Counted from the first letter of the stretch, positions 2,239 through 60,850 are shown. The stretch is 64,000 nt of DNA from an uncultured bacterium (GCA_937996235.1 CALKVK010000012.1:145139-209138), one strand, 5' to 3'. Notes: generated from the sequence alone by a model not told the origin. Translations and numbers: made by a program.

Positions 2239-2474
2239 GGGGACGCTGGCAGCTAAGTCGGGTTCCAGCCTCGACAACGTCCGCGCCGTCCGCGCCGTCC
2301 GCGGCGTCGGCGGCGCCCGCGGCGCCCGCGCCGCGCGCGCCGCGCGCGACCGCGTCCGACGTGGCGCCCGCCGACCTCGGTGGCAGAGCCGAGGCTGCAA
2401 CCCGACTTAGCTGCCAGCGTCCCCAAGAGGGCGTCCCGAGGAGGCTGGAACTCGACTTGGCTGCCGGCGTCCCC
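2239..2474. repeat. Composite inverted-repeat element. One direct copy (2239-2273) plus two tandem inverted copies (2388-2424, 2441-2474) of a ~36-bp unit, GGGGACGCTGGCAGCTAAGTCGGGTTCCAGCCTCG.
   Basis: Copy A and the reverse complement of copy B differ at 1 of 36 positions. Copy C is degenerate. The same family recurs at 6140-6336. Confidence 0.8.
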
Positions 2475-2486
2475 AAGACTGGGCGG

Positions 2487-6139: not shown

Positions 6140-6336
6140 GGGGACGCTGGCAGCTAATTCGGGTTCCAGCCTCGAGATCGACACGACAGCCAGGTCGGCG
6201 CTCTGCGCGGAGGGCAACCACCCTGGTCGAGCCGAGGCTGGAACGCCACGTGGCCGCCGGCGTCCCCTGCGGACTGCGTCGCGCGACGGCCGTGCTGAAG
6301 CCGAGGCTGGAACCCGACTTAGCTGCCAGCGTCCCC
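6140..6336. repeat. Second locus of the same ~36-bp inverted-repeat element family. Direct copy 6140-6174; degenerate inverted copy 6231-6267; near-perfect inverted copy 6300-6336.
   Basis: Copy D (GGGGACGCTGGCAGCTAATTCGGGTTCCAGCCTCG) differs from copy A at 1 position. The reverse complement of copy F is identical to A apart from its ends. The locus starts 22 bp after the PKD gene stop. Confidence 0.8.
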
Positions 6337-40259: not shown

Positions 40260-40646
40260 CGCGCAGCAGCGGGCGGCGACGTGAGTCGGCGTCCGCCACG
40301 ACCTGTAGGGGCGACACCGTTCGGACGCCCCCCTCGCCCGAGCCCGGCCAGGCTCGCCCCTGCGGCGGCGGACGCTGCGATGGTCCTGCGCGTCCCGACG
40401 CCTCTGGCGGAGGATCCTGGGGACCTGCGCGCCGGGCGCGCCGCACACCGTGCGGCGGCGGACGCGCGACGGACGGTGGACGGCGGGTGCGCTGCACCCC
40501 GCGAGGACGCGCGACGAGGGAACGAGCCGACGCGAGGGGCGCGCGACGTCGCCCCCACGGACACTCCGCGGCCGCTTCGCAACCCCCGCACGCTGCATCT
40601 CGAGACTGATCCGGGTCCCCAGGCCAGTTCACGACGGAGCCAGGCA

Positions 40647-45482: not shown

Positions 45483-45576
45483 CCGCTACGAACGGTGTCC
45501 GACACCGTTCGTCGGCTTGACCGCTACGAACCGTGTCAGACACGGTTCGTAGCGGACACCGTTCGTAGCGGTCAGG
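45483..45576. repeat. REP-like palindromic element cluster (family GCTACGAACGGTGTC-N-GACACCGTTCGTAGC). 2-3 copies, between convergent genes.
   Basis: The perfect palindrome GAACGGTGTC C GACACCGTTC and its variant GAACCGTGTC A GACACGGTTC were read directly. Family members recur at five other loci. Confidence 0.8.
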
Positions 45577-45583
45577 CGCTCAC

Positions 45584-46753
45584 TCAGCGCCGGACGACCT
45601 GCAGCCCCGAGACGCCCGTGGTGGCGTCCGCGACGAAGTCGACGGGCGTCAGCGCGCCCGTCTTCTTGTCCAGCGCGAAGGTGTAGAAGCCGACGCCCTG
45701 GTCGCCGTCCCCGGCGACAACGACGTACTTGCCGTCCGGCGAGCGGCCGTGCGCCTGGATTCTCGTGAGCGATGTCTCCACCGTGTCGGGCAGCGGCTCG
45801 ATCGCCCCGTTCCGCGCGACGGTCGCCGACTGGATCCCCTCGCTACGGACACCGAACAGGACGGCCGGCCCCTTCTTGGCGAAGTTCGCCCCCGATCCCG
45901 CCGAGCCCAACGTCGCGGTGTACGGCGAGCCCTTCAGCGGCCGGAGTTCGCCAGTCTTCCGGTCGATCGAGAACCCATGCACCAGCGGGCCGTCGCCGTC
46001 GCCCGCGTAGACACGCCTGCCGCGCGCGTCCACGTGCAGGTTCCACGCACCGTCGGTGTCCATGTCGCCGAGAGCTCCCGGCGCGGGCGTCAGAGCGCCA
46101 TCCTTCCCGACGGCGAACGACGCGATCAGGCCCCCCACCTCGTGGATGCACAGGAGCTGGCGCGACGTGGCCGCGAGGCCGTCCGGCCCGTCGCCGCCGC
46201 TCGCGACCGGCGACCCGGGGAGAACGCTCAGCGAGCCGTCGGCGGCCATCTCGTAGCCGCGGATCGTGTCCCTGGTGTAGTCGCTCGTGTAGACGAACGT
46301 CCGGCTGCCGCGATCGACGGCGCGCGTCCCGAACAGGCGGTTGCCGACACCCTCGACGGCGAACGGCGAGCCGGGGGCGAGGGTCAGGACGCCGTCCGCG
46401 CCGACGAGGTAGACGTTGAGCGCGTCGCTGCCCGGCATCACCAGCGCGTTCCGCCGCTTCGAGTAGCCGAGCAGCCCGCAGAACCCGCCGCAGCCCACGG
46501 GATCGACGTCGGGTGAGAACGGGCTGCCGGCGATCGGCGTCAGCGTGCCGTCGCTCTCCCAGGCGTACGCCAGCACGGCGGGCGAGGGGCTCGAGCGGTA
46601 GGCGTAGACGAACGTGCGCTTCGCCGCCCGCTTCGCCACTGTCTTCGCCGCTGCGTTCGCCGTCGGGCTCGCAGACCCCGCCGGCGCCGACGCGACCGGC
46701 AACGCGAACGCGACGGCCGCACAGGCCACGAGCAACGCCACACGGATGCGCAT
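45584..46753 (-). CDS. Secreted beta-propeller protein (lactonase / 6-phosphogluconolactonase-like, 7-bladed).
   Basis: Signal peptide MRIRVALLVACAAVAFALPVASA. Repeated G-x-x-P/F-D-G blade motifs (SPDGKYVVVAG, AADGSLSVLPGSP and similar). Confidence 0.75.
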   Translation of the reverse strand: MRIRVALLVACAAVAFALPVASAPAGSASPTANAAAKTVAKRAAKRTFVYAYRSSPSPAVLAYAWESDGTLTPIAGSPFSPDVDPVGCGGFCGLLGYSKRRNALVMPGSDALNVYLVGADGVLTLAPGSPFAVEGVGNRLFGTRAVDRGSRTFVYTSDYTRDTIRGYEMAADGSLSVLPGSPVASGGDGPDGLAATSRQLLCIHEVGGLIASFAVGKDGALTPAPGALGDMDTDGAWNLHVDARGRRVYAGDGDGPLVHGFSIDRKTGELRPLKGSPYTATLGSAGSGANFAKKGPAVLFGVRSEGIQSATVARNGAIEPLPDTVETSLTRIQAHGRSPDGKYVVVAGDGDQGVGFYTFALDKKTGALTPVDFVADATTGVSGLQVVRR

Positions 46754-46827
46754 CGACGAGCCCTCCGAGGAGTGCGCGGGGGCGGGGCGGGTGCCCGCCC
46801 CGGCGGCGGCGGAGGACTCTACACGCT

Positions 46828-46932
46828 CGACGAACGGCGCCCGCTACGAACGGTGTCGCTACGAGCGGTGTCAGACACCGTTCGTCGGCTTGACCGCTAC
46901 GAACCGTGTCTGACACCGTTCGTAGCGGTTGA
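46828..46932. repeat. REP-like palindromic element cluster, near-identical to the 45483-45576 copy.
   Basis: Shares the exact segment GACACCGTTCGTCGGCTTGACCGCTACGAACCGTGTC with the 45.5 kb locus. The two copies flank the lactonase-like gene. Confidence 0.8.
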
Positions 46933-46938
46933 CGACGC

Positions 46939-49599
46939 TCAGCGCGACCACGTCGCCGCCGCGCCGGACTTCCGGTGCAGCCGGACGACCGTCTCGTACG
47001 CCGACGCGCCCGACGCGAGCGGCACGATTACGCGCACGTCCACGTCGGCCTCGAGGGCGCCCGTCGCCGGCAGGCCGAGGTCCGCCAGCTCCGTGGTGAC
47101 GATGCTCAGGACGCGCGTCTTCGGGTCGTACTTCAGCGACTTCAGCCCGGCCACCGCGGCCGCGCGGCGGTCGTAGGAGAAGCCCGTCGCCCCGCCGCGC
47201 TCGACGCGCACGAGCGCCGCGAGCGGCACGACGAGCGGGTCGGCGTCGCCGAGCACGAGCGACACGTCGCCCGCGGGGAACGCGTCCGCGCCGTCCGCGA
47301 GGACGAGCGGACCCTTCACGCTCACCACGTGCGCGCCGTTCGCGCGCCGCTTCGCCTTCGTCTTGAGGGCCGCGAACACGGCGTCGAGCGAGCGCTGCTT
47401 CGCGAACGCGAACGCCGCGCGCGTCGTGTCGCCCGCACGCGAGGCGTACGCGAACTCCAGGTCCTGGGCGGCCTCGGGGGTCGCGAGGTCGATGCCGTCG
47501 ATGCGCACGCCGAGCGCGAGCGGCAGCGCGCCGGAGGCGGTCTCGTCGGCGAGACCCGTCGCCGCGCGCAGGTCGAGTCCCTTCGCGCGCAGCACGAGCG
47601 CGCCCGTGGACGCGCTGTACGACGCCTTGAACGCCACGCCCTCGGAGGTCGTGCCGCTGCCGATCCCGCGCGCGTTCAGGCCGGAGGTCTCGAGCAACTC
47701 GACGCCGCCCAGCGTGAGCGTGACGTGCGCCCCGAACGCGTCGTCGGCGCCGCGCGGGTTCAGCACGGCGCGCAGCTCGAACGTGTCGGACGACGCGCCG
47801 CGCGCGTGCGCCTTCCAGTCGATCGCGAACGCCGCGCTCGCGACGTAGAGCGCGCCGTCGTCCGACGCGACCGGCACGGGCTCCGGCTCCTCGGGCTCCT
47901 CCGGCTCGGCGAGCACGGCGCCCTCGAGCGTCACCTGCGCGATGCGCGACAGCGCGACGCCGCCCGTTGCCGCGGGATCCGCGACGCGCCACTGGAACCA
48001 GTGCACCTCGCCGAAGCGCGCGGCGTCCGCGGGCACCGGCCAGAGCGCTGTCGCGTGACCGTCGCCCGCGCCCGACCCGCCGAGCGTGAGCGTCGCGACG
48101 ACCTCGTCCTGTGCGACGACACCGCCGCTCGGCGCCGACGACGAGCGCACGAGCTCGGCCGTCGCGCCGGGCAACGCGTTGTCGACGGCGAGCTGGAACA
48201 GCGCGTTCCCGAGCCGCGGCGGCGTCACCGCCACCATGCGCGGCGTCCGTCCGCCGGTCCCGGTGCTGCCCGCGCCCGTGAGGAGCGGGTTCGGCGTCCG
48301 CTCCGAGTGGAGCGTCGGCCGGTCGAACGGGAACGTCTCGGCCGCGACGCGCGGGTCGGTCAGTCCCGTGGTCAGGAACGCGACGATGTCGGCCTGCGCC
48401 TGAGGCGGCACGCGGATCGGCGGGATCAGCGGGTCCTGGTTGTCGGTGAACTGCTGCGTGCCGGGCGCCTGCGCGTAGAAGCGCAGCACGTCCGCGAGCG
48501 ACGTGAACTCGCCCTGGTGCATGAACGTGCGCTTCAGCCCGACGTTGCGCAGCCCCGGCACCTTGAACTTCCCGCGGTCCGCGCTGCTGCCGGTGATCGC
48601 CTGACGACCCGTGTCCTCGGCGACCGGCCGCACGCCGATGTTGCGGAACGTGTCGTCGGTGAAGAGCGGCGGCTCGTGGCAGACGTTGCAGCGGTGCGCG
48701 GGGGCCTGGAACGCGTTCCAGCCGCGGAGCGCGGCGTCCGTGAGCGCGTTCACGTCGCCCGCGCGGAAGCGGTCCCACGGGGTCTGGTCGGCGATGAGCG
48801 TGCGCTCGTACGTCGCGATGGCGAACGCGATGCGCCGCGGCGTGATCGCCGCGTCGCCGAACGCGGCCGCGAACAGCGCCGGATACGAGCCGCGCGCCGC
48901 GATCGCGTCCGCGGCGTCCTGCGGCACGTTCGTGGCGAGCACGAGCGGCACCGCCGTCTCGAGCTTCGTCGTGATCTGCCCCCAGTCGCGCGCCGCGTGC
49001 GCCATCTCGACGGAACTGACGGGCGGCCCGACCACCTGGCTCTCGAGCGCCCCGCCGCTCGCGATGTGCAGCGCGTCCGTGACCGGGTCGCGGAAGGCGC
49101 CCGTCGCGCGCCCGTCCCAGAACAGCAGGTCCGCGTACTGCGCCATGATCGCCGGCGGCGCCGCGCGGCCGGTGACCTGCGGCGTCAGCGCGAACGTCGC
49201 GTCCTTCTCGTACGCGCCCGCCGCGTCCGCGCGCAGCACGCCCGGCGACCCGACGACGTCGTCGGCCGTCCCGAAGGTGCCGTCCGCGCCCGGGTGCGCC
49301 CCGAGCCGCGGGTCCGTGCCGCCGCGCGCCGGCACGTGGCAGGTCCCGCACGCGACCGTGTCGTCCGCCGAGAGCTGCTCGTCCCAGAAGAGGATCTTCC
49401 CGAGCACGCGCTTCGACTCGGTGACCGGGTTCTCGACGGGTGCCGTCACCGCCGGCACCTCGGCGAACGCCGCCCCCAGCACGACCAGCGTTCCGCCGAC
49501 CGCCCCGCCGATCCACGCCGCCGCCCGCACCGTCCTCGGCGCTCGCAGCGCCCGCCTCGTCCCGGATTCCGTCGCGCGTCGCATCGTCCGTCCTCGCAT
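46939..49599 (-). CDS. Di-haem cytochrome c peroxidase family protein (CCP/MauG-like) with a long C-terminal extension (~886 aa).
   Basis: Two CxxCH haem motifs (CGTCH, CNVCH). Signal-like N-terminus MRGRTMRRATESGTRRALRAPRTVRAAAWIGGAVGG. The start could equally be 49584. Confidence 0.75.
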   Translation of the reverse strand: MRGRTMRRATESGTRRALRAPRTVRAAAWIGGAVGGTLVVLGAAFAEVPAVTAPVENPVTESKRVLGKILFWDEQLSADDTVACGTCHVPARGGTDPRLGAHPGADGTFGTADDVVGSPGVLRADAAGAYEKDATFALTPQVTGRAAPPAIMAQYADLLFWDGRATGAFRDPVTDALHIASGGALESQVVGPPVSSVEMAHAARDWGQITTKLETAVPLVLATNVPQDAADAIAARGSYPALFAAAFGDAAITPRRIAFAIATYERTLIADQTPWDRFRAGDVNALTDAALRGWNAFQAPAHRCNVCHEPPLFTDDTFRNIGVRPVAEDTGRQAITGSSADRGKFKVPGLRNVGLKRTFMHQGEFTSLADVLRFYAQAPGTQQFTDNQDPLIPPIRVPPQAQADIVAFLTTGLTDPRVAAETFPFDRPTLHSERTPNPLLTGAGSTGTGGRTPRMVAVTPPRLGNALFQLAVDNALPGATAELVRSSSAPSGGVVAQDEVVATLTLGGSGAGDGHATALWPVPADAARFGEVHWFQWRVADPAATGGVALSRIAQVTLEGAVLAEPEEPEEPEPVPVASDDGALYVASAAFAIDWKAHARGASSDTFELRAVLNPRGADDAFGAHVTLTLGGVELLETSGLNARGIGSGTTSEGVAFKASYSASTGALVLRAKGLDLRAATGLADETASGALPLALGVRIDGIDLATPEAAQDLEFAYASRAGDTTRAAFAFAKQRSLDAVFAALKTKAKRRANGAHVVSVKGPLVLADGADAFPAGDVSLVLGDADPLVVPLAALVRVERGGATGFSYDRRAAAVAGLKSLKYDPKTRVLSIVTTELADLGLPATGALEADVDVRVIVPLASGASAYETVVRLHRKSGAAATWSR

Positions 49600-49696
49600 C
49601 GGCCACAACGGCCGCCGAGCCGAACGTAGGACGCGCTCCTTGCGGACTCCTGAAGGCGCCCCCCTCGGACGGCGACGGACGGTGTCTGACACCGTT

Positions 49697-49770
49697 CGTC
49701 GGACACCGGACACCGTTCGTCGGACACCGTTCGTCGGCGTTCGTCGGACACCGTTCGTCGCGGAATCGGC
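49697..49770. repeat. REP-family half-site array. About four tandem direct copies of GACACCGTTCGTCG plus one palindromic copy, in the divergent CCP/Crp intergenic region.
   Basis: CGGTGTCTGACACCGTTCGTCGGACACCGGACACCGTTCGTCGGACACCGTTCGTCGGCGTTCGTCGGACACCGTTCGTCG was read directly. Confidence 0.75.
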
Positions 49771-49840
49771 CCCCGTCGCGCGCGGCGGCCCCTTGTCGCG
49801 CACCGAGACGGCAGTCACAATCCACGCTGAAGGAGCCTCG

Positions 49841-50716
49841 ATGGGACTGCTGCTCGACACACTCCGCAGCGTGGAGTTCCTGGCGGGACTCGGCGACGAG
49901 ACCCTGACGCGGTTCATGGTCCTCGGGCGCTCGCTCGAGCACCCGCGCGGCCACCTGTTCTGGCGCGCCGGCGACGCCGCGAGCGGCGTCGTCGTACCCG
50001 TCACGGGCACGGTCAAGTGCTCGAAGCACGGCGCCGACGGACGCGAGTTCATCGAGTCGTTCCGTGGGCCGGGCGAGTGCGTCGGGCTCGACGCCGCGGT
50101 GGACGGCCTCCCGCAGGTGGCGGACGCCGTGGTCGTGCGCGCCGGCGAGTTCTACCGGATCGGCGCCGAGGCCTTCCGCGGCTTCGTGCGCGAGAACCCC
50201 CAGGTCTATGCGGTCGCGGTGCGGCAGATCGGCCGCCAGTTGCGCCGCGCGACGCAGGAGCGCGAGGACATCACGCTGCGCCCGGTCGTGGAGCGCATGG
50301 CCCAGTTCCTGCTCGAGCACGCCTGCCTGCGCCAGCGCGACGGCGCGAAGGTGCTGGTGGAGGCGACCCAGGCCGACATGGCCGCACGCCTCGGGACCGT
50401 GCGCGAGGTGGTGGCGCGGACGCTCGCCGACCTCACGGAGCGCGGGCTCGTGGCGCGCACGGAGCACGGCATCTTCATCGAGGACTGGGACGGGCTCCAC
50501 GCCGTCGCCGGGGTCACGCCGGAGGAGGTGCGCCACCGCGCGACGATGCTCGGCTCCGCGCCGGGCCCGCGCTCGGCGCGCTACTTCCTTCCCATCGCGG
50601 ACGAGCGCGGCGCCGCCGCCGGTTCGGACGGCTGCGCGGAACACCTCGGCGACCTGAGCGCATGCCGCAGCGCGGGCTGCCCCGGCGCCGGTCCGCGCGA
50701 TCCCCGCCGCCGCTGA
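49841..50716 (+). CDS. Crp/Fnr-family transcriptional regulator (cNMP-binding domain + C-terminal HTH).
   Basis: AAGGAG RBS 6 bp upstream of ATG at 49841. The cNMP-like domain is followed by TQADMAARLGTVREVVARTLADL (HTH). Confidence 0.85.
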   Translation: MGLLLDTLRSVEFLAGLGDETLTRFMVLGRSLEHPRGHLFWRAGDAASGVVVPVTGTVKCSKHGADGREFIESFRGPGECVGLDAAVDGLPQVADAVVVRAGEFYRIGAEAFRGFVRENPQVYAVAVRQIGRQLRRATQEREDITLRPVVERMAQFLLEHACLRQRDGAKVLVEATQADMAARLGTVREVVARTLADLTERGLVARTEHGIFIEDWDGLHAVAGVTPEEVRHRATMLGSAPGPRSARYFLPIADERGAAAGSDGCAEHLGDLSACRSAGCPGAGPRDPRRR

Positions 50717-50747
50717 CGCCCCGCGCCTGCCGGGGACGGCGACCCGC

Positions 50748-51440
50748 GTGGCTCCACGCTACGATGCGACCGTGACGCCGCCCGACGCGCCCGACGCCCC
50801 GGCCGCCCCGGCCGCCCCGGCCGCGCCGCGCGCCGTGCTGCTCGCGCACGCGCTGCGGCTCGAGTACGCGACCGTCGGGTGGAACGTCGTCGAGGCCGTC
50901 GTGGCGCTCTCCGCCGCGGAGGCGGCGGGCAGCGTCGCGCTGCTCGGCTTCGGCGCCGACAGCGTCATCGAGAGCCTCTCGGGGGCCGTCCTCGTCTGGC
51001 GCCTGCGCGCGGAGCGGGTCGGGGACGACGCGGAGCGGATCGAGCGGCTCGACCGGCGCGCGCACCGCCTGGTCGGCGTGTCGCTCTTCGCGCTGGCGGC
51101 GTACGTCGGAGTCGCGGCGGCGCACGCGCTCTGGACGCAGCGCGCCCCCGAGGCCTCGCCGCTCGGGATCGCCGTCACCGCGGTCTCCGCCGCCGCGATG
51201 CTCGTCCTCGCGCGCGCCAAGCGCCGCGCGGCGGCGGCGCTCGCGAGCCGTGCACTCGAGGCGGACTCGTTCCAGACCACGGCGTGCTGGTGGCTCTCCG
51301 TCATCACCCTGACGGGGATTGCCGCCAACGCGGCGCTCGGCTGGTGGTGGGCGGACCCCGCGGCCGCGCTCGCGATGACCGCGCTGCTCGCGCGCGAGGG
51401 CGCGGACGCGTGGCGACGTCGGCCCTGCTGCGGCTGCTGA
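50748..51440 (+). CDS. Cation-diffusion-facilitator-like membrane protein (truncated or short CDF-related).
   Basis: TM helices with the CDF-like motif ALLGFGADSVIESLSGAVLVWRL. The N-terminus is low-complexity (PAAPAAPAAP), so the start is uncertain. Confidence 0.6.
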   Translation: MAPRYDATVTPPDAPDAPAAPAAPAAPRAVLLAHALRLEYATVGWNVVEAVVALSAAEAAGSVALLGFGADSVIESLSGAVLVWRLRAERVGDDAERIERLDRRAHRLVGVSLFALAAYVGVAAAHALWTQRAPEASPLGIAVTAVSAAAMLVLARAKRRAAAALASRALEADSFQTTACWWLSVITLTGIAANAALGWWWADPAAALAMTALLAREGADAWRRRPCCGC

Positions 51441-51552
51441 CCGCGCCCGCAGGCGCCGCGACGTGCCGCCGCGCGGGACCCGCGGATCCGGACGCGAGGG
51501 GCGCGCCGCGGAGTTCGCGGCGCGCCCCTCGGAGAGACGGCTCCGCCGGTCG

Positions 51553-53880
51553 TCAGGCGCGGACGCGCCCGCGGCCGGCCGGCAGCTCGGCGCCCGGCGG
51601 GACGAGCCGGTCGAGGTCGAGCGCGTCCGGCTGCGGTCGCCGGTCGAAGCTGTGGCCGGTGAAGAGGCCGGTCACGAACCACGCGAACGAGCCGACGCCC
51701 GCGAGGAAGAGCGTGTCGCCGACGAGCCGCGCCCAGCGCAGCTTCTCGACGAAGCCCTGCTGGAGCAGCTCCGAGCTGCGCGCGTACCAGAGGCCGGTCT
51801 CGATGCTCGCGTAGGCCTGCACGAGGCCGATCGGCAGCAGCGAGAAGGCGATCATGGCGGCGAGCCCGGCGTTCATCAGCCAGAAGCCGCGCGCGAGCCA
51901 GCGCTCGTCCCACGCGTGTTCGGGGCGCAGGCGCCGCAGCACGAGCAGGATCAGCGCCAGCGACAGCAGGCCGTACACGCCGAAGAGCGCCGAGTGGGCG
52001 TGCACCGGCGTCGTGTTCAGGCCCTGCATGTAGTAGAGCGCGATCGGCGGGTTGATGAGGAAGCCGAAGAGGCCCGCGCCGACGAGGTTCCAGAACGCGA
52101 CGCCCCCGAGGAAGCGCAGCGGCCAGCGATAGCGCCGCATCCACGGCGCGCGCTGCTCCATGCGCAGCGTCTCGAGCGCCTCCTTGCCGATCAGGACGAG
52201 CGGCACGACCTCGAGCGCGCTGAAGCTCGCGCCGACGGCCATGATCGAGACCGGCGTGCCGCTGAAGTACAGGTGGTGGAAGGTGCCGGGGATGCCGCCC
52301 AGCAGGAAGATCGCGGTCGCGAAGAGCGAGGCGCGCGCCGCGCTGCGCGGCGTCACGAGCCCGAACTGCGCGAACAGGAAGGCGACCGCCGCCGTGGCGA
52401 AGACCTCGAAGAAGCCCTCGACCCACAGGTGCACGACCCACCAGCGCCAGTACTCCATCACCGAGAGATGGGAGCGCGCGCCGAAGAGCAGCCCCGCGCC
52501 GTAGAACAGGCCGATCGCGACGGTCGAGCCGGTGAAGAGCGTGACGACCGGGCGCATCGAGCTCTTCGCGGTGAGCGCCGGCCAGAGCGCGCGCAGCATC
52601 AGCGTGAGCCAGAGCGCGAGTCCGCCGAACAGCGCGATCTGGAACGCGCGCCCGAGGTCCACGTACTCGTAGCCCTGGTGGCCGAACCAGAACGTCGCGC
52701 CGGCGCCGAGCTTCTGCTGCACCGCCAGCCACTCGCCCGCGAGCGAGCCGACGACGACGAGCACGAGCGCGCCGAACAGCACGTTGACGCCGAGGCGCTG
52801 GAAGCGCGGCTCGCGTCCGCCGATCGCCGGTGCGAGGAAGAGCCCCGCGGATAGGAACGCCGTCGCGATCCAGAAGACGGCGAGCTGCAGGTGCCACGTC
52901 CGCGAGACCGCGTACGGCAGGTACTCCGCGAGCGGGAAGCCGAAGAACGAGTCGCCCTCGACCGTGTAGTGCGCGGTGACTCCGCCGAGCAGGACCTGCA
53001 GCACGAACAGCGCGACGGCCGTCAGACAGAACTTCCCGGCGGCGCGCATCGACGGCGTCGGCGTGAGCGCGTCGAGCGGGTCGTGGCGCGGCGGCGCCGG
53101 GTCGTCCTCCTCGGCGCGCTTCGCGGCGTGGTACCAGACCAACGCGCCGACGCCCGCGAGCAGCACGACGATGCTGATGATCGACCACATCACGTTCGCC
53201 GCGCTCGGCACGTTGCCGACGAGCGGCTCGTGCGGCCAGTTGTTCGTGTACGTCGTCGGCGCGTCGGGGCGCTCGGTCGTGCACGCCCACGCGGTCCAGA
53301 AGAAGAACGCGGCCAGGTCCGCGCGGCGCTCGGGCTCGGGCACGGCGCGGGCGTGGAGCGCGTAGTCCTCGCGCAGCTCCGCGGTGGCGGGGTCGTCGCC
53401 GAAGAGCGACATGGTGTGCGCCGCCACCTCCGCGACGGCCGCGGCGCGCTCGTCGGAGATCGTCAGCGTGCCGGTCGCGGCGTCGTACGTGTTGCGGCGC
53501 AGCTCGCTCCGCAGGCGGTCGCGCAGCACGACCTGGCGCTCGGGCGGCAGCGCGTCGAACGTCGCCGCCCCCTCGGCCCGCGCCCAGACGCCGAGGAGCG
53601 CCGTCGCCTCGCGGTGCAGCCAGTCCGCGGACCAGTCGGGCGCCTGGTAGGCGCCGTGGCCCCAGACGGACCCGACCTGCTGGCCGCCGACGCTCTGCCA
53701 GACCTGCTGGCCGTCGAGGATGCGCTCGCCGGTCGCGATCTCGACGCCCGACGTCGTGACGACGCGCGCCGGGATCGGCGGCGCCTGCCGGTAGACCTCG
53801 CGCCCGAACCAGCCGAGCACGAGGAACGTGCCGAGGAGCACAGCCCCCAGCGCGATCCAGAGTCTGCGTGTGCCGTACAT
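51553..53880 (-). CDS. norB: Quinol-dependent nitric oxide reductase, single large subunit (qNOR; haem-copper oxidase superfamily, 775 aa).
   Basis: ATG at 53880 (MYGTRRLWIALGAVLLGTFLVLGWFG). About 14 TM helices. Conserved histidines (HLWVEGFFEVF, GTFHHLYFSG). Length is typical of qNOR. Confidence 0.9.
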   Translation of the reverse strand: MYGTRRLWIALGAVLLGTFLVLGWFGREVYRQAPPIPARVVTTSGVEIATGERILDGQQVWQSVGGQQVGSVWGHGAYQAPDWSADWLHREATALLGVWARAEGAATFDALPPERQVVLRDRLRSELRRNTYDAATGTLTISDERAAAVAEVAAHTMSLFGDDPATAELREDYALHARAVPEPERRADLAAFFFWTAWACTTERPDAPTTYTNNWPHEPLVGNVPSAANVMWSIISIVVLLAGVGALVWYHAAKRAEEDDPAPPRHDPLDALTPTPSMRAAGKFCLTAVALFVLQVLLGGVTAHYTVEGDSFFGFPLAEYLPYAVSRTWHLQLAVFWIATAFLSAGLFLAPAIGGREPRFQRLGVNVLFGALVLVVVGSLAGEWLAVQQKLGAGATFWFGHQGYEYVDLGRAFQIALFGGLALWLTLMLRALWPALTAKSSMRPVVTLFTGSTVAIGLFYGAGLLFGARSHLSVMEYWRWWVVHLWVEGFFEVFATAAVAFLFAQFGLVTPRSAARASLFATAIFLLGGIPGTFHHLYFSGTPVSIMAVGASFSALEVVPLVLIGKEALETLRMEQRAPWMRRYRWPLRFLGGVAFWNLVGAGLFGFLINPPIALYYMQGLNTTPVHAHSALFGVYGLLSLALILLVLRRLRPEHAWDERWLARGFWLMNAGLAAMIAFSLLPIGLVQAYASIETGLWYARSSELLQQGFVEKLRWARLVGDTLFLAGVGSFAWFVTGLFTGHSFDRRPQPDALDLDRLVPPGAELPAGRGRVRA

Positions 53881-53950
53881 CGTGAGGCTCCCTCTCGCCG
53901 TGGTCAGCGCGCGGCTGCGCGCGGGACGAGGACGTCGTCCCCACCGCACG

Positions 53951-53967
53951 TTGGCAAGCCACGTGCC
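53951..53967 (-). promoter_or_regulatory. Sigma54 (-24/-12) promoter driving the qNOR gene.
   Basis: Minus-strand reading GGCACGTGGCTTGCC gives GG-N10-GC with TGGCACG-N4-TTGC character. It lies ~70 bp upstream of the norB start and is divergent from norR. Confidence 0.6.
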
Positions 53968-54069
53968 GGGATCGCGCGGCGCGGAAGCGTGCCTGCGGGA
54001 GCCTGCGCGATATGGATTCGACAACGCTGCGCGTTATGATTGCGACATCTTCGTTGTCCGGAGAACAGC

Positions 54070-55659
54070 GTGACGCAGCTCGACGCCTTCCTCTCGGCCG
54101 CCCTCGATCTCACGTCCTCGCTCGCCGCCGAGGACCGCTACCGCCGCCTGCTCGCGGCCGTCCGGACCGCGATCCCCGCCGACGCGGCGTGCCTGCTGCG
54201 GGCCGAGGGCGACGTGCTCGTCCCCCTTGCCGCGCACGGCCTCGCGCCGGACGCGCTCGGGCGCCGCTACCCGCTCGACGCGCACCCGCGGCTCGCCGTC
54301 ATCTGCGGCGCGCGGGAGCCCGTCGTCTTCCCCGCCGACAGCACCCTGCCCGACCCCTTCGACGGCCTCGTGGCGGAGGACCCCGACGCGCTCGAGCACA
54401 TCCACGCGTGCATGGGCTGCCCGCTGCGGGTGGACGGGCGGCTCGTCGGCGTGCTGACCGCCGACTCCCTGAACCCCCACGCGTTCGACGGCCTCGACCT
54501 GCGCGTGCTCTCGGCGCTCGGCGCGCTCGCGGGCGCCGCGATGCGCACGAGCGCCCTGATCGAGGCGCTCGAGGAGTCGTCACGAAGGCTCGGGCTCGTC
54601 GCGCGCGACCTCGTCCGCGACGCGCACGAGCGCGGCGGCGGCCTGATCGGCACGAGCGCGCCGATGCAGCGGGTGCGGCGCGAGATCGAGCTCGTCGCGC
54701 GGACCGACATGCCGGTGCTCGTGACCGGCGAGACGGGGACGGGCAAGGAGCTCGTGGCGCGTGCGGTGCACGCGGCGTCCGAGCGGGCGGAGCGCCCGCT
54801 GATCTACGTCAACTGTGCGGCGCTCCCCGAGTCGGTCGCGGAGAGCGAGCTCTTCGGCCACGTGCGCGGCGCGTTCACGGGCGCGGAGCGCGACCGGCCC
54901 GGCAAGTTCGAGGTCGCCGACGGCGGCACGCTGCTGCTCGACGAGGTCGGCGAGCTGCCGCCCGGCGTCCAGGCGAAGCTGCTGCGTGCGCTGCAGGAGG
55001 GCGAGATCCAGCGCGTGGGCGCCGACCATCCGCTGCACGTGGACGTGCGGATCGTCGCGGCCACCAACCGTGACCTCGACCGCGAGATCGCGGCGGGCCG
55101 GATGCGCGCGGACCTCTACCACCGCCTGGCCGTGTACCCCATCCACGTGCCGCCGCTGCGCGAGCGCGGCGCGGACGTCGCGCTCCTGGCCGGCCACTTC
55201 TGCGACCGCACGCGCGCCCGGCTCGGCCTCGGCCCCGTGCGCCTCGACGCCGCCGCGCGCGCGCGGCTGGGCGGCTACCCCTGGCCCGGGAACGTGCGCG
55301 AGCTCGAGAACGTCGTCTCGCGCGCCGTCCTCCGCGCCGCGGCGGGCCTGGAGCGCGGGACGGCGGTGGTCGTCGCGCCCCACCACCTCGGCCGCGACTT
55401 CGGAGGCGACCCGGACGGTGCCGCGGACGCCGACCGCCCGGGCGCCGCCGCCGACGCGCCCGCGGCCGTCGCCGCCGTCCCCGACGCGTCGCCGCGCGCC
55501 GCACCCGCACCGCTCGCGCAGCGCGTGGACGAGTTCAAGCGCCGCGCCATCCGCGACGCCCTCGCAGCGCACGGCGGCAACTGGGCGGCCGCGGCGCGCT
55601 CCCTCGGCCTGCACCGCAGCAACCTGCACCACCTGGCGCAGCGGCTCGGCCTGCGCTGA
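54070..55659 (+). CDS. norR: NorR-type sigma54-dependent NO-responsive transcriptional activator (GAF + AAA+ sigma54-interaction + Fis-type HTH).
   Basis: GGAGA RBS before GTG at 54070 (TTG at 54040 is the alternative). GAFTGA motif ([10 protein letters not shown]), Walker [10 protein letters not shown]-terminal HTH ([22 protein letters not shown]). Divergent from qNOR. Confidence 0.85.
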
Positions 55660-55685
55660 GGGCCCCCGGCGCCGCGGACCCGCCC

Positions 55686-55733
55686 GACGAACGGTGTCCG
55701 ACGAACGGTGTCTGACACCGTTCGTAGCGGTTG
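55686..55733. repeat. REP-family palindromic element (one full copy + one half-site).
   Basis: CGACGAACGGTGTCCGACGAACGGTGTCTGACACCGTTCGTAGCGG. Confidence 0.75.
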
Positions 55734-55783
55734 TTGCGCCGACGGAGCTCGCGCATCCTTCTCGGACCGCGAGGTGTACCCGC

Positions 55784-55927
55784 ATGGCCCCTCCCTACTA
55801 CTGGATGCTCGTCGCCTCGACGAAGGCCGCCGGCAAGCGCCTGAACCCGCGCCGCCGCCGCATCGCGCGCGCACACCACGTCTCGTTCTTCGCCTGGCTC
55901 CGCCGCTGGTGGACCTCCCGGCGCTGA
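55784..55927 (+). CDS. Possible small ORF (47 aa) upstream of the antiporter gene.
   Basis: ATG at 55784 gives MAPPYYWMLVASTKAAGKRLNPRRRRIARAHHVSFFAWLRRWWTSRR. No recognisable domain. It lies in a frame that is otherwise antisense junk. Confidence 0.2.
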   Translation: MAPPYYWMLVASTKAAGKRLNPRRRRIARAHHVSFFAWLRRWWTSRR

Positions 55928-55987
55928 CGCGCCGCGGACGCAGGCGGGACCCGGCGCAACGGGCCACGGCAGGGAGGGACCGGACGC

Positions 55988-57685
55988 ATGCACGCGTGGG
56001 GGTTGCTGGCGCAGATCGTGATCCTGCTCGCCGCGGCGCTGGTCGCCGGCGGCGTGATGGCGCGGCTGAAACAGAGCCCGCTCGTCGGCTACCTGCTCGC
56101 CGGCATGGTGATCGGCGGACCGGGCAGCCTCGGCCTGGTCGAGGGCCAGCACGGCATCGACGTCATCGCCGAGCTGGGCGTGTCGCTCCTGCTCTTCAGC
56201 CTCGGCCTCGAGTTCTCGTGGACGCGCCTGCGCTCGTTCGGCACCCGCACGCTGCTCGGCGGCGCGCTCCAGGTGGCGGGGACGATCGTCGCCGCGTTCG
56301 CGGTCGGGATGCTGTTCGGCCTCGGCCCCGCCGCCGCGCTGGCGGTCGGCGCGATGGTCTGCCTGAGCAGCACCGCGGCCGTCCTGCGCGTGCTGATGGA
56401 CCGCGGCGAGTCCGACAGCCTGCACGGGCGCAACGCGGTGGCCGTCCTGCTCGTCCAGGACGTGGCGGTCGTCCCGCTCGCCGTCCTCGTCACCCTGCTC
56501 GCGGGCGGGGGCAGCCTGTCCGACGTCGCGCTCGACGTGGGCCGCGTGCTGCTCTTCGCGATCTGCCTCGTCCTGCTGCTCTACCTCGTCCTCAACAAGC
56601 TCGCCCTCTTCGCGCTCGGCCGCCTGACGCTCGAGCGCAACCGCGAGCTGACGATCCTGCTCGCCGTCGTCGTCGGTCTGGCCGCGACCTTCGCCGCGCA
56701 CGCAGCCGGCCTCTCCCCCGCGATGGGCGCGTTCCTCGCCGGGATGTTCCTCGGCGGCTCGCCCTTCGCGACCCAGGTGCGCGCCGACGTGGCCTCGCTG
56801 CGCGTCGTGCTGCTGACGCTCTTCTTCGCGGCGGCGGGGATGGTCGCGGACCCCGTGTGGATCGCGCAGCACGCGCTCCTCGTCCTCGGCGTGTCGCTGC
56901 TCGTGCTCGTCGTCAAGGCGGGCGTCGCGGCCGGCGCGCTGCGCGCGCTCGGGCAGCCGCGCGGCACGGCGCTCGCGACCGGCCTCTGCGTCGCGCAGAT
57001 CGGCGAGTTCGCGTTCGTGCTCGGCGGCTCCGCGGTCGAGCGCGGGGTCGTCAGCTCCGAGGTCTACACGCTCGTCGTCTCCTGCACCATCGTGTGCCTC
57101 GTCGTGACGCCGTACATCGTCGCGGCGAGCCCCCACGTCGCGGCCTGGACCGAGCGGCGCTTCGGCGCCGTCGCGGCGCTCGCGGCGCGCGCCGGCGGGC
57201 ACGGCTCCGACCCCGCCCCCCACCCGGCCGCCGCGCCGGACGTCCTCGTCATCGGCTTCGGCCCCGCCGGCCAGGCCGTGGGCCGCGTGCTCGCGCGCCG
57301 CCGCCACCAGGCCGCCGTGATCGACATCAACCCCGCGAGCCGCCCCGTCGCCGAGCGCATGGGCCACCTCGCCCACCTCGGCGACGCGCACCTGCCCGAG
57401 ATCCTCGAGCACGCGCACGTCGAGCACGCGGCCGTCGTCGTCGTCACCATCCCGTCGCGCGCCGCCACCCTGGCCGTGCTCGCGCAGGTGCGCTTCATGA
57501 ACCCCCGCGCGCACGTCATCGTCCGCACCCGCTACCAGTCGCACAAACAGGAGTTCATCGACGCCGGCGCGCACGTCGTCGTGGACGACGAGGAGGAGGC
57601 CGGCCGCCGCCTCGCCGCCGCGACGGCGGCCTTCCTCGGCCGCACGGCGCTACGAACGGTGTCCGACACCGTTCGTAGCGGTTGA
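55988..57685 (+). CDS. Monovalent cation:proton antiporter-2 (CPA2) family K+ efflux protein (KefB/KefC-like) with C-terminal TrkA-N/RCK domain.
   Basis: Na_H_Exchanger-type TM domain followed by a Rossmann segment DVLVIGFGPAGQAV (GxGxxG). The last ~10 codons run into the REP element. Confidence 0.85.
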   Translation: MHAWGLLAQIVILLAAALVAGGVMARLKQSPLVGYLLAGMVIGGPGSLGLVEGQHGIDVIAELGVSLLLFSLGLEFSWTRLRSFGTRTLLGGALQVAGTIVAAFAVGMLFGLGPAAALAVGAMVCLSSTAAVLRVLMDRGESDSLHGRNAVAVLLVQDVAVVPLAVLVTLLAGGGSLSDVALDVGRVLLFAICLVLLLYLVLNKLALFALGRLTLERNRELTILLAVVVGLAATFAAHAAGLSPAMGAFLAGMFLGGSPFATQVRADVASLRVVLLTLFFAAAGMVADPVWIAQHALLVLGVSLLVLVVKAGVAAGALRALGQPRGTALATGLCVAQIGEFAFVLGGSAVERGVVSSEVYTLVVSCTIVCLVVTPYIVAASPHVAAWTERRFGAVAALAARAGGHGSDPAPHPAAAPDVLVIGFGPAGQAVGRVLARRRHQAAVIDINPASRPVAERMGHLAHLGDAHLPEILEHAHVEHAAVVVVTIPSRAATLAVLAQVRFMNPRAHVIVRTRYQSHKQEFIDAGAHVVVDDEEEAGRRLAAATAAFLGRTALRTVSDTVRSG

Positions 57686-57726
57686 GCGCGACGAACGGTG
57701 TCGGACACCGTTCGTCGGCGTTCGGC
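57649..57726. repeat. REP-family palindromic elements (two copies) between the convergent kef and FG-GAP genes; likely bidirectional terminator hairpins.
   Basis: GCTACGAACGGTGTCCGACACCGTTCGTAGCGG and GACGAACGGTGTCGGACACCGTTCGTCGGCG. Confidence 0.8.
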
Positions 57727-57728
57727 GC

Positions 57729-59816
57729 TCAGTACGTCAGGCGGCTGCCGCGCTTGCGCGCCTGGACCTCGACGGCGTCCGGGCAGCCCCGCGGGAGCAG
57801 CGACAGGCCGAAGACGAACGGCGTGGAGTCGTCGCCGGGGAAGCGCCCCAAGAGGGCCCCGCGGAGCGCCACCCGCACGCGCCGCCGCGCGAAGTCGAGC
57901 GAGACGGTCGCGCGCGCGCCGTCGGGCGCGTCGGCGCGCGGTGTGAAGACGAAGCCGCCCGGGACGGAGCGGACGTCGTGCGTCGCCTGCGAGAGCGTCA
58001 TGCGCAGCGGCCGTCCCGGGGAGCCGAGCACGAGCCGGAGCTCCGGCGACTCGGCGACCACGCCCTCGCCCACCTCGCGCGCGAGCTGCGCGGTCAGCGA
58101 CACGCTCCCCGCGCGCCCGTGCGGTGCCGTGACGCGCAGCCGGCTCACCGTCAGCGGCGGGCCGGAGAACTCGCCGCGGCCGGACCGGTATACGCCGCTG
58201 GTCAGGTGCACGGTGGCCGCGACGCCGACATCCGCTGTCGCGAACCCGAGCCCCAGCAGCTCGTCACCGTCGCCCGTCACAGGCAGCGTCTCGTCCCAGC
58301 CGTTCAGGGTCAGGTCGAGCCGCGCCTTCGAGGACCCGCCCGCGCGGTCGGTGCGGACGGTCGCCTTCAGCGCCTTGTCCGTGCTCGCGTACGTCCACCG
58401 CGTCGCGCTGCCGTTCGGTGCGAACGCCGGGATCTCCAGCTGCAGCTCCCCGCACCGGATGGTCGCGCCCCCCGCGAGATCCACGCCGTCCGGTCCGAGA
58501 TCGATGTCGGCCCGCACGGTCAGGCGCTTCCCGGCCTTCGCGCGCACGGCGACGGGCGCGAGGAAGCTCCGCGCCCGCTTCACCGGCTGCGGCAGGAGCG
58601 GCAGGATCGCGACCTCCTCGCCGCCGTCCGGGTTGACGGGGTCGGGATCGCTCCCCACGAAGCCGCCGGCGCCGTCGCCTGTCCACAGGTGCGTGCGTCC
58701 GCCGAACGTGCCGGTGAAGACGGCGTCGAGGTCGCCGTCGCGGTCGAGGTCCGCGAGTGCGACGCCGTGGCTGATGAAGCTGCGGGACGGCTCGGGGTCG
58801 GAGCCCGTGAAGCCGCCCGCGCCGTCGCCGAGCCAGATCCGGTCCACGGTCCCGTTCGTGAAGACGACGTCGAGGTGCCCGTCGCCGTTCAGGTCCCCCA
58901 GCGCGACCGTCTTGCCGAGCCGCTGGACGTCGGGCTCCGGGTCGAACGCCGTGAAGACGGCGTGCCCGTCGTTCAGGAACACGCGGTCCGGCTGGTCGCG
59001 GTTCGCGATCACGATGTCCTGGTCGCCGTCGCCATCGAGGTCGCCGATCGCCACGCCGCTGGCGTCGCGCACGAGGTCCGGCTCGAGGTCGCTACCGGTG
59101 AAGCCGCCCCGCCCGTCGCCCAGCCACAGGCGGTCCGGGGCGCCGACGACCGCGAAGACCGCGTCGAGGTGCCCGTCGCCGTTCAGGTCCCCGAGCGCGA
59201 CGCGGCGCGACGCAAGCGCCACGTCCGGCTCCGGATCGCTGCCCGTGAAGTTGCCCGCGCCGTCGTTCAGGAGCACGCGGTCGGGCGCGAAGATCTGACA
59301 CACCACCGCGTCGAGGTCGCCGTCCGAGTCGAGGTCGCCGAGCGCCACGCAGTACGACGGCCGCGTGACGGTCGGCTCGGGGTCCACCCCGACGAACCCC
59401 CCGGCGCCGTCGCCGAACCAGATCCGGTCCGCCTGGTAGCCGACGAAGTACGCGTCCATCCGGCAGTCGCCGTTCAGGTCGCCCACGGCGACGCCGCGCG
59501 ACGTGCGCGCCACGGCCGGTTCCGGATCGACGAACCTGAAGCCGCCCACCCCGTCGCTCAGCCACACGCGGTTCGGGAGGTTGTTGATGGCGACGACGAC
59601 GTCGGGCGCGCCGTCCCCGTTGAAGTCGTCGTCCGCCGCCGCCGTCCCCGCGACGCCGAGGGCCGCCACGGCCACGAGCAGGCCCGCGCGCCGCGCGGCC
59701 CTGCGCCGGGCGATGCCGACCCAGGAGACGCAGCCCCCGGATGCGCCGACCCGGGCGTCACCCCCGCGCCGCGCGCCGCGTCGCACCTCCGCCAACGTCG
59801 CGTGGATCCCGGACAT
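57729..59816 (-). CDS. Secreted FG-GAP/VCBS-repeat (integrin-alpha-like beta-propeller) protein with a C-terminal extension (695 aa).
   Basis: Signal peptide (...RRRAARRAGLLVAVAALGVAGTAAA). At least 7 repeats of GDLNGDGHLD / FxNDGxGxF. Confidence 0.8.
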   Translation of the reverse strand: MSGIHATLAEVRRGARRGGDARVGASGGCVSWVGIARRRAARRAGLLVAVAALGVAGTAAADDDFNGDGAPDVVVAINNLPNRVWLSDGVGGFRFVDPEPAVARTSRGVAVGDLNGDCRMDAYFVGYQADRIWFGDGAGGFVGVDPEPTVTRPSYCVALGDLDSDGDLDAVVCQIFAPDRVLLNDGAGNFTGSDPEPDVALASRRVALGDLNGDGHLDAVFAVVGAPDRLWLGDGRGGFTGSDLEPDLVRDASGVAIGDLDGDGDQDIVIANRDQPDRVFLNDGHAVFTAFDPEPDVQRLGKTVALGDLNGDGHLDVVFTNGTVDRIWLGDGAGGFTGSDPEPSRSFISHGVALADLDRDGDLDAVFTGTFGGRTHLWTGDGAGGFVGSDPDPVNPDGGEEVAILPLLPQPVKRARSFLAPVAVRAKAGKRLTVRADIDLGPDGVDLAGGATIRCGELQLEIPAFAPNGSATRWTYASTDKALKATVRTDRAGGSSKARLDLTLNGWDETLPVTGDGDELLGLGFATADVGVAATVHLTSGVYRSGRGEFSGPPLTVSRLRVTAPHGRAGSVSLTAQLAREVGEGVVAESPELRLVLGSPGRPLRMTLSQATHDVRSVPGGFVFTPRADAPDGARATVSLDFARRRVRVALRGALLGRFPGDDSTPFVFGLSLLPRGCPDAVEVQARKRGSRLTY

Positions 59817-59869
59817 TGCGCGTCCTCCCTCCGCCGCGGGCGGCGGACTCCGTTACGTCAGGCTCAGGC

Positions 59870-59975
59870 TCTTCAGCCCCACTCAGCCCCGCTCAGCCCC
59901 GTGGAGCCCCGTGGAGCCCCGTGGAGCCCCGTGGAGCCTCGTGGAGCCTCGTTGGGCCTGGTCGGGCCTCGTGGG
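59870..59975. repeat. 10-bp tandem repeat (GTGGAGCCCC-like, ~10 units, progressively degenerate) in the promoter region of the FG-GAP gene.
   Basis: CAGCCCCACTCAGCCCCGCTCAGCCCCGTGGAGCCCCGTGGAGCCCCGTGGAGCCCCGTGGAGCCTCGTGGAGCCTCGTTGGGCCTGGTCGGGCCTCGTGGGCCCTCG was read directly. Confidence 0.75.
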
Positions 59976-60226
59976 CCCTCGTTCGGCATCCGGCGCGCGC
60001 CGCACCGACGCGCCCCAGCCTGGATTGGCCCGAGGCCGCGGTTTCGCAGGGAGAATCCGGTCTTCGCCGCCCAGCCGCGTTCGTCAGCAGGCCACGGGCG
60101 CCTCCCGGCCGGCGCGGTCCCCTCCGCCGCCCCTTCCGCCGCCCCGCCGACGCGAACCGTCGGTGCAGGCGCACTGCGGCCCAGCACGCGCCGGTGCCGG
60201 ACGCGAGCCGGATCTCGACCCGGCCA

Positions 60227-60296
60227 CTACGATCGGTGTCAGACACCGTTCGTAGCGGTCGAGCACTCCGGCCGGTGTCTGACACCGTTCGTCGCG
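60227..60296. repeat. REP-family palindromic elements (two copies) upstream of ppa.
   Basis: CTACGATCGGTGTCAGACACCGTTCGTAGCGG ... CCGGTGTCTGACACCGTTCGTCGCGG. Confidence 0.75.
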
Positions 60297-60316
60297 GCTG
60301 AGATCGGAGGAGCCCC

Positions 60317-60850
60317 ATGCACCCCTGGCACGACGTCACCGTGGACGAGTCGCGCATCGCCGAGAGCTTCCCGGCCGTCATCGAGGTCCCGAAGGGCAGC
60401 ACCAACAAGTACGAGCTCGACAAGGAGACGGGGCTCCTGCGCCTCGACCGCGTCCTCTACAGCGCCGTCCACTACCCCGCCGACTACGGCTTCGTCCCGC
60501 GCACTTGGTGCGACGACGGCGACCCGCTCGACGTCCTCGTCCTCGGCCAGGCGCCCGTCCACCCCCTGACCATCGTGGAGGCCCGCGCCGTCGCCGTCAT
60601 GCCCATGCGCGACGAGAAGGGCCTCGACCACAAGCTCATCGCCGTCAGCGCCGCTGACCCCGCCTACGACGGCATCCGGGAGCTCGATCAGCTCGCCCCC
60701 CACGTCCTGCGCCAGATCCGCCGCTTCTTCGAGGACTACAAGATCCTCGAGAACAAGCGCGTCGAAGTCGCCACCCCCCTCGGCCGCGCCGCCGCCCTCG
60801 ACGTCCTCCGCGAGGGGTTGCGGATGTACGCGGCGGGACGTCGCGGGTGA
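60317..60850 (+). CDS. ppa: Inorganic pyrophosphatase (family I).
   Basis: GGAGGAG RBS. Signature motifs EVPKGSTNKYELDKETG, DGDPLDVLVL, DHKLIAV. Confidence 0.9.
   Translation: MHPWHDVTVDESRIAESFPAVIEVPKGSTNKYELDKETGLLRLDRVLYSAVHYPADYGFVPRTWCDDGDPLDVLVLGQAPVHPLTIVEARAVAVMPMRDEKGLDHKLIAVSAADPAYDGIRELDQLAPHVLRQIRRFFEDYKILENKRVEVATPLGRAAALDVLREGLRMYAAGRRG

Follow-up and report, generated by a model that had tools for sequence, protein, structure and literature searches.

Published repetitive extragenic palindromes (REPs) form dimers that fold together, lie at unidirectional or convergent gene junctions less than 20 nt from stop codons, can supply the stop codon itself, and belong to families that are clustered in blocks (Di Nocera et al. 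2013, PMC3733652). The GTAG and CGTC superfamilies were defined in the same study by a GTAG or CGTC tetranucleotide that stays unpaired at one end of the stem-loop, the 5' foot; their dimers are head-to-head or tail-to-tail (HH/TT) with spacers of 1-100 bp, one family is found in distant phyla, and block-wise clustering was described in T. roseum (PMC3733652). Hairpin repeats of the REP, bacterial interspersed mosaic element (BIME) and REPIN type were also described by Quentin et al. (2018, PMC6006769), where atypical high-copy hairpin repeats with the 5' foot CnGA accompany class 3 HUH-Y1 proteins in Acidobacteria and Planctomycetes. The present work concerns a family of palindromes in a 64,000-nt stretch of DNA from an uncultured bacterium (GCA_937996235.1, CALKVK010000012.1:145139-209138), referred to as the window, in which six clusters of these palindromes, designated A to F, occupy gene junctions between about 45 and 60 kb (Table 1).

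Judged from the 64-kb window, the six clusters are probably copies of a REP/BIME-type (REPIN-like) family of repetitive extragenic palindromes; the family is new, the class of element already known. The assignment rests on palindromes of 20-40 bp, dimers that co-fold, a position after stop codons, the supply of terminal codons, sharing between distant phyla and clustering in blocks, all of which match published REP traits. A sequence-only reading of the window had proposed a REP-like palindrome family, and this remained the best-supported reading in view of the intergenic bias, the doublets that fold as one long hairpin, the duplication of whole doublets, and the relatives at gene 3' ends with covarying outer stems.

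A search of the window for the 21-bp core GAACGGTGTC-N-GACACCGTTC (10-1-10), allowing up to three mismatches, gave 10 matches, all between 45490 and 60290, and no match in dinucleotide-preserving shuffles of the window (n=100). The 15-nt arm GCTACGAACGGTGTC was matched 25 times with up to two mismatches, versus 0.18 expected. The palindrome family was thereby confirmed as real and non-random in the window. The unit is a palindrome of about 31-41 bp that can form a stem-loop (perfect arms of 5-17 nt). Its core, CGAACGGTGTC-N-GACACCGTTCG, is conserved, and its outer stems are either GCTAC...GTAGC or (C/G)CGAC...GTCGG. It had been called a perfect 15+1+15 palindrome, but perfection over at least this length was found in only two copies, centred at 57664 (16-nt arms) and at 45538 (17-nt arms, with a compensated C/G change), whereas the remaining copies had perfect arms of 5-14 nt, with 12-17 of 20 positions matched.

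An extreme intergenic bias was found: 24 of the 28 arms found with at most one mismatch lay in the roughly 7% of the window that is non-coding. Two further arms constitute the last 12 codons of the kef open reading frame (ORF), which runs through the first hairpin of cluster E to its stop at 57683-57685 and, as had been noticed, translates the repeat as a C-terminal RTVSDTVRSG. The clusters occupy convergent (A, E), co-directional (B, D) and divergent (C, F) junctions, two of each and all three kinds as previously reported. The coordinates first given for the clusters stood for five of the six; the left edge of cluster C, placed at 49697, was 25 nt too far to the right and left out one arm, the left, of the single complete palindrome in that cluster. 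A hairpin covariance model, run with filters off over the whole 64 kb, recovered no copy beyond the six clusters and a solo half-arm, which faces a degenerate opposite arm, GCGACGGACGGTGGAC, near 40466 and is probably a decayed copy. Seven loci were thus found in the window; every one of them falls within 40-60 kb, and 1-40 kb has none.

Four of the clusters (A, B, E and F) are hairpin doublets with centres 38-39 nt apart, each made up of one GCTAC...GTAGC hairpin and one (C/G)CGAC...GTCGG hairpin joined by a 6-10 nt spacer, GT[C/T][A/G]AG, which appears as GTCAAG, GTTGAG or GTCGAG. Starting from the upstream gene, the stop codon is followed in turn by the GTAG-type hairpin, the spacer and the second hairpin; this is true for the CCP/MauG-like gene (B), the Kef-type exchanger gene (E) and the lactonase-like gene (A), and after the NorR-like gene (cluster D) only the first hairpin is present. 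Clusters A and B are paralogous, with 94% identity over 72 nt, and the identical 37-bp segment previously reported for them was located at 45501-45537 and 46874-46910. Clusters E and F are likewise paralogous (87% identity over 68 nt). Paralogy at the level of the doublet, in both pairs, indicates that the doublet is the unit that was copied to new intergenic sites. The predicted RNA folds of the clusters had energies of -51 to -94 kcal/mol on either strand, with z scores of -4.8 to -13.5 (cluster A, -93.6 kcal/mol, z -13.5; cluster E, -70 kcal/mol, z -8.8), and doublets E and F were each predicted to form a single long hairpin. According to these folds, a doublet can adopt either two hairpins or one long hairpin, as REPINs and BIMEs do.

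The arms have also been duplicated and altered within the clusters. Half-arms are repeated in tandem with a period of 14-16 nt at 45539, 46830, 49707 and 55684, and cluster C shows tandem periods of 14 and 21. In the second hairpin of cluster A, CCGTG stands opposite CACGG, and in the paralogous hairpin of cluster B CCGTG stands opposite CACCG, so that in A a change in one arm is matched by the corresponding change in its partner. Duplication associated with the hairpins and copying from arm to arm have both occurred here; the process behind them we infer.

A scan for the exact 21-bp core through one genome per GTDB species (596 Gb) found it elsewhere at 26 sites in 25 DNA stretches, where at most about one was expected by chance. 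All of the core-bearing stretches are soil metagenome-assembled genomes (MAGs), assigned to Gaiella, Ilumatobacter or Ilumatobacteraceae, 'uncultured Actinomycetes', Vicinamibacterales, Acidobacteriota and Tepidisphaeraceae. The related sites are intergenic and lie 0-85 nt from a stop codon; 14 of 24 related loci are convergent (p=5e-4) and 2 of 24 divergent, a bias towards 3' ends that can be set beside the even division of junctions in the window. Most of these loci have a second copy of a 7-1-7 core 65-220 nt away. In other MAGs the core copies are scattered over many contigs, and in an 8-kb piece of an Acidobacteriota MAG they stand at nearly all gene junctions, beside ordinary housekeeping genes. 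No recurring neighbour gene family was seen at the related loci, and neither a REP-associated tyrosine transposase (RAYT) nor another transposase was encoded nearby in the fetched loci. The core was not found on the viral contigs or plasmids searched, and a metagenome scan (JGI) with the window-specific arm GACACCGTTCGTAGCGGT returned only chance matches in coding sequence. Rfam gave no match at gathering thresholds, only sub-threshold look-alikes of miRNA hairpins, and the possibility of a known RNA family was dropped for this reason. A literature search found neither the core sequence nor a description of REPs in these taxa.

Beyond the core, the outer stems of the related copies differ and yet are complementary (gtaa/ttac, taga/tcta, gttac/gtaac, gat/atc, gga/tcc). 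In an alignment of 51 copies, 75% of the stem cells pair, versus 29-48% when the partner is slid, and stem pairs 7-10 take up to five pair types, with CG, GC, UA and AU at the same pair. By this comparison of sequences the outer stems covary, which argues for a hairpin rather than a duplex site. In the Gaiella-type MAGs, each hairpin bears in addition a conserved 45-nt tail, GTCAAGGGCAAaCCGTGCCAACtnTGTGCCAATCGCTCCACAG, that ends in CCACA/TGTGG and contains two GTGCCAA repeats one helical turn apart; the tail is conserved in sequence and has no predicted RNA structure. Sixteen units, found in Gaiella and 'uncultured Actinomycetes' MAGs, carry it on one side and some copies (loci L008 and L018) on both sides, and a related tail occurs in one Vicinamibacterales MAG. 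Tailed units are often head-to-head pairs between convergent genes, and of the 12 cases in which a gene lies within 50 nt of the hairpin, 11 showed the order stop codon, hairpin, tail (tally by eye). When the window was searched with a covariance model of hairpin plus tail, the match was confined to the hairpin (model positions 3-30 of 85), and no tail was recovered.

These relatives raise the tentative possibility that the window doublets locally represent a previously undescribed superfamily, spanning several phyla, of oriented elements of the 3' untranslated region (3' UTR), with a mobiliser or reader. Such a superfamily would be characterised by the core CGGTGTC-N-GACACCG followed by GTCAAG, with the 45-nt tail in the Gaiella-type MAGs, and its hosts would comprise the MAG groups named above together with the deep-branching 75% GC lineage of the window.

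The resemblance to the REPs and BIMEs of enterobacteria and to the REPINs of Pseudomonas is close in arrangement: these too are extragenic palindromes in inverted doublets or clusters, with a doublet that folds as one hairpin and duplicates as a unit, and the window repeats likewise adjoin stop codons and sometimes provide the last codons or the stop. Unlike these elements, which have loops of 2-5 nt and bulges, the window palindrome is near-perfect with a single-base centre, its GTAG is paired and 3' of the stem, and no cognate RAYT was found among 54 window ORF translations scanned with Pfam, a few of which overlap or repeat the same gene. With the GTAG/CGTC-tagged superfamilies the family shares size, dimers, heterodimers, sharing between distant phyla, block-wise clustering and, for four of the six clusters, unidirectional or convergent location (PMC3733652). 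Membership nevertheless fails, because the window repeats have GTAG and GTCG 3' of the stem on either strand, base-paired with CTAC and CGAC, rather than unpaired at the foot. The window stem sequence was not found in the text or text-format supplements of PMC3733652. The hairpins associated with class 3 HUH-Y1 proteins occur in the same kinds of phyla as the present core, and by analogy such a protein would offer a plausible mobilising enzyme for the window repeats; the core was not found in the text-format supplements of PMC6006769, and no class 3 HUH-Y1 gene was found in the window or the fetched loci.

Several observations weigh against the assignment to the REP/BIME class. The presence of many copies dispersed over the genome is the decisive, defining property of REPs, and in the window about 11 intergenic gaps in 1-40 kb lack the family, whereas 6 of the 8 gaps in 45-60.3 kb carry it (Fisher p=0.001), so that a local function or purely local spread is possible. 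In addition, 1) the palindromes are symmetric up to a single central base, a pattern that is commoner in duplex sites bound by a dimer than in RNA hairpins, 2) the paired position of the GTAG and CGTC motifs 3' of the stem is unlike that of canonical REP tags, 3) no U-tract follows any hairpin, as judged from a terminator scan of 45-61 kb and inspection of the sequence, 4) clusters C and F are in the promoter regions of divergent genes, a setting that usually has fewer REPs than expected, and cluster F ends 22 nt before the ATG of ppa, and 5) the 54 translations scanned held no HUH-Y1 or other transposase.

The symmetry of the palindromes suggested that they might be operators or enhancers of a local regulator, either the NorR-like sigma-54 activator or the Crp/Fnr-family protein, and define a local regulon. 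The core contains GGT-N7-ACC, which fits the NorR consensus GT-N7-AC, with a free central base in the dyad; the sites occur two or three to a locus, near the norR-like gene and norB, as NorR enhancers do; clusters lie upstream of a gene in 4 of 6 instances, two regulator genes and a nitric oxide (NO) reductase gene are interspersed among them, and the family is restricted to one 20-kb region of the window. NorR sites, however, are GT-(N7)-AC sequences, three per sigma-54 promoter (PMC2831303), and only one good sigma-54 promoter was found, CGGCACGTGGCTTGC. It lies on the minus strand at 53954-53968, some 75 nt upstream of the start of norB; no palindrome is close to it, and none of the six clusters has a comparable promoter nearby. 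Unlike NorR enhancers, the palindromes are absent from the norR-norB intergenic region and present at convergent gene ends, and the NorR-box reading was rejected. CRP/FNR operators have a half-site spacing of 5-N4/6-5, which the palindromes do not fit; this misfit and the convergent sites led to the rejection of a Crp/Fnr operator as well, despite the gene for such a protein adjoining cluster C. The dimeric transcription-factor operator put forward as an alternative by the sequence-only reading is disfavoured, and very unlikely, because clusters A and E are completely enclosed by convergent stop codons, the outer stems covary and are not conserved as an operator would be, and the copies in other genomes sit at 3' ends with no common neighbour gene or regulator; the arms are moreover present as ragged tandem duplications. 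Very unlikely, too, is an array of sites for a chromosome-organising or topology protein, for example a parS/KorB-like centromere or gyrase sites, concentrated in 20 kb. Gyrase sites have been proposed for the BIMEs of E. coli, and both the regional clustering and the location of sites at convergent junctions, where positive supercoils accumulate, would fit, but no ParA, ParB or KorB gene was found among the window ORFs scanned, the copies in other MAGs are spread over many contigs, and the covarying stems favour a hairpin. The palindrome is also unlike the conserved parS consensus. Integron attC sites, CRISPR, uptake sequences resembling the DNA uptake sequence (DUS) and parS were rejected on architecture, from the sequence alone.

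Two further explanations take the hairpin itself as their starting point. The tail of the Gaiella-type units, with its CCACA/TGTGG end and two GTGCCAA repeats, resembles the transposase-binding sites at Tn7-, Mu- or insertion sequence (IS)-type ends, and the hairpin could be the centre or inner remnant of a miniature inverted-repeat transposable element (MITE) moved by a DDE-type transposase, of which the window copies would be tail-less derivatives. The conserved one-sided tail of the 16 units, the two-sided tails at L008 and L018, and the GTCAAG, GTTGAG or GTCGAG retained after the hairpin in the window are in keeping with this proposal. It is unlikely, however: conservation peaks at the centre and falls outward, the reverse of typical MITEs, the hairpin-plus-tail model matched the hairpin alone in the window, and no target-site duplications were seen and no transposase nearby; most related units are half-elements with the order of stop codon, hairpin and tail given above, which random insertion would not produce. 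Unlikely, too, is the proposal that the hairpins are bidirectional terminators lacking a U-tract, or 3'-end stabilisers, spread by local recombination or gene conversion with no dedicated mobilisation. They do follow stop codons directly at clusters A, B, D and E and at most related loci, and they are predicted to be very stable on both strands. An intrinsic terminator consists of a hairpin and a T/U tract, though, and the terminator scan flagged 0 of the 6 clusters; clusters C and F have no upstream gene end, and local recombination cannot account for the spread of an identical 21-bp core through several phyla.

If the clusters are REP/BIME-type elements, as we prefer to think, new copies would arise via single-stranded hairpin intermediates. 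One route would be a hairpin-specific enzyme encoded elsewhere in the genome, for which RAYT-like or other HUH-Y1 enzymes provide the precedent; by analogy, a RAYT or a class 3 HUH-Y1 protein is a plausible mobiliser. Hairpin-templated strand switching and slippage in replication would be an alternative route, or an additional source of the ragged arms. The copies would persist in intergenic DNA since they are least harmful there. Those that follow a stop codon would be transcribed in the 3' UTR and would act, if at all, as stable RNA hairpins that protect the 3' end or attenuate read-through with no U-tract, and not as promoter operators. Any function would most likely be at the RNA level, as a 3'-UTR hairpin.

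Table 1. Palindrome loci and neighbouring genes of the window, with the tailed units found in other genomes
Feature	Position	Strand	Setting	Parts
Cluster A	45485-45571; outer palindrome 45475-45579		between convergent NAD-glutamate dehydrogenase (GDH) gene (stop 45480-45482) and lactonase-like gene (stop 45584-45586)	hairpin 45485-45515; spacer CTTGAC; hairpin 45522-45554 (17-nt perfect arms with compensated CCGTG/CACGG); extra right arm 45555-45571; outermost 25-nt arms (45475-45499, 45555-45579) take in the GDH stop codon
Cluster B	46843-46928		3' of CCP/MauG-like gene (-), 5' of lactonase-like gene (-)	extra left arm 46843-46857; hairpin 46858-46888; spacer CTTGAC; hairpin 46896-46926
Cluster C	49672-49761		divergent gap, CCP/MauG-like gene (-, start ~49608) / Crp/Fnr-family gene (+)	single palindrome 49672-49702, then three direct right-arm copies starting at 49709, 49723 and 49747
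Cluster D	55684-55730		25 nt past NorR-like gene stop, ~260 nt before kef	extra left arm 55684-55698; palindrome 55698-55728
Cluster E	57648-57720		between convergent kef (+) and FG-GAP gene (-)	perfect hairpin 57648-57680; spacer GTTGAG; hairpin 57688-57718
Cluster F	60226-60297		500-nt divergent gap, FG-GAP gene (-) / ppa (+)	hairpin 60226-60256; 10-nt spacer; hairpin 60269-60295
Solo exact half-arm GACACCGTTCG	40313-40323		intergenic gap upstream of GDH gene	
Tailed units	L008, L009, L010, L014, L016, L017, L018, L021, L022; example L022 5680-5760			
GDH	40647-45482	+		
Lactonase-like beta-propeller	45584-46753	-		
CCP/MauG-like di-haem protein	46939-~49608	-		
Crp/Fnr-family regulator	49841-50716	+		
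CDF transporter	50748-51440	+		
qNor NorB	51553-53880	-		
NorR-like GAF-AAA+-HTH activator	~54070-55659	+		
Kef-type exchanger	55988-57685	+		
FG-GAP protein	57729-59816	-		
Inorganic pyrophosphatase (PPase; ppa)	60317-60850	+		

The gene map of the window (G+C 75%) was built from third-position GC and Pfam, and the GDH start was set at 40647 in view of the length of the matching database protein (P0146, 1611 aa). The nearest protein relatives of the window genes are only 60-74% identical. Among the few that carry a source name, the GDH relatives are from Planctomycetota, Thermoanaerobaculia and Rhodospirillales and the PPase relatives from Gemmatimonadaceae and Vicinamibacterales, and the assumption that the DNA is myxobacterial is for these reasons without support. 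The contig that carries a PPase homologue has no palindrome copy. On the contig with a 67%-identical lactonase-like homologue, three copies of another short motif, GGAGCCAGGCTC-like, and no palindrome were found downstream of the gene (L041 1146-1386; synteny of position was not checked), a different repeat that fits a fast turnover of intergenic repeats.

Some other features of the window were recorded. At its C terminus the Crp/Fnr ORF carries a long tail of low complexity, which reaches 50716, and the CDF gene was called from 50748 with a Pfam match that begins at profile position 8; the boundary between the two genes and their starts are uncertain (50650-50800). The divergent norB/norR gap (53880-54070) contains, beyond the sigma-54 promoter, an inverted repeat, GACAACG (54020-54026) and CGTTGTC (54052-54058), and a single GT-N7-AC match (54056) in the expected enhancer region; since there is only one such match, the NorR-like protein may use a different site. 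The 500-nt gap that holds cluster F has no coding signal, and upstream of the FG-GAP gene it contains a 10-nt tandem repeat, AGCCCCGTGG, in about nine copies with 89-97% matches (59873-59982), unrelated to the palindromes.

Farther from the clusters, a repeat of about 53 nt is present in four copies as two tandem pairs (2372-2474 and 6215-6336) and contains GGAAC-N16-CGTC, a promoter pattern of the extracytoplasmic function (ECF) sigma type. An ECF sigma factor gene (2457-3059) begins directly after the first pair, which slightly overlaps its start, and the second pair is upstream of a Zn-metallopeptidase gene (6421-7137); by sequence pattern, the repeats probably mark an autoregulated ECF regulon. 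The region 13261-36489 consists of very large genes that encode CHAT proteases with TPR, a 1673-aa WD40 protein, AAA ATPases, DUF4062 with inactive-STAND, and a nucleoside deoxyribosyltransferase-like domain; the run is flanked by Ser/Thr kinases and, in its domain content, resembles a conflict or STAND-type system. Between 60900 and 64000 the G+C content falls from about 75% to 66-70%, and the ORFs are without a Pfam match save for a Schlafen-group-3-like helicase (62419-63774, minus strand), so that this segment may be a foreign or defence-type island.

Recognition of the repeat avoids mis-annotation, as junk ORFs translate it and kef gains a 12-codon tail from it, and avoids the reading of the palindromes as operators of the adjacent NO-response genes. 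The palindromes also mark sites that are prone to hairpin-driven rearrangement. To our knowledge, no mobiliser is known for REP-like repeats outside Proteobacteria. Were the proposed superfamily real, its conservation would imply either that a mobilising enzyme specific for the hairpin has spread horizontally or that a conserved host factor recognises this exact hairpin, and the superfamily would stand apart from the Proteobacteria-centred GTAG/RAYT paradigm. A 21-bp hairpin core that lies at gene 3' ends and is identical among soil bacteria from several phyla provides a modest but real handle on the enzyme or host factor that propagates REP-like repeats outside Proteobacteria.

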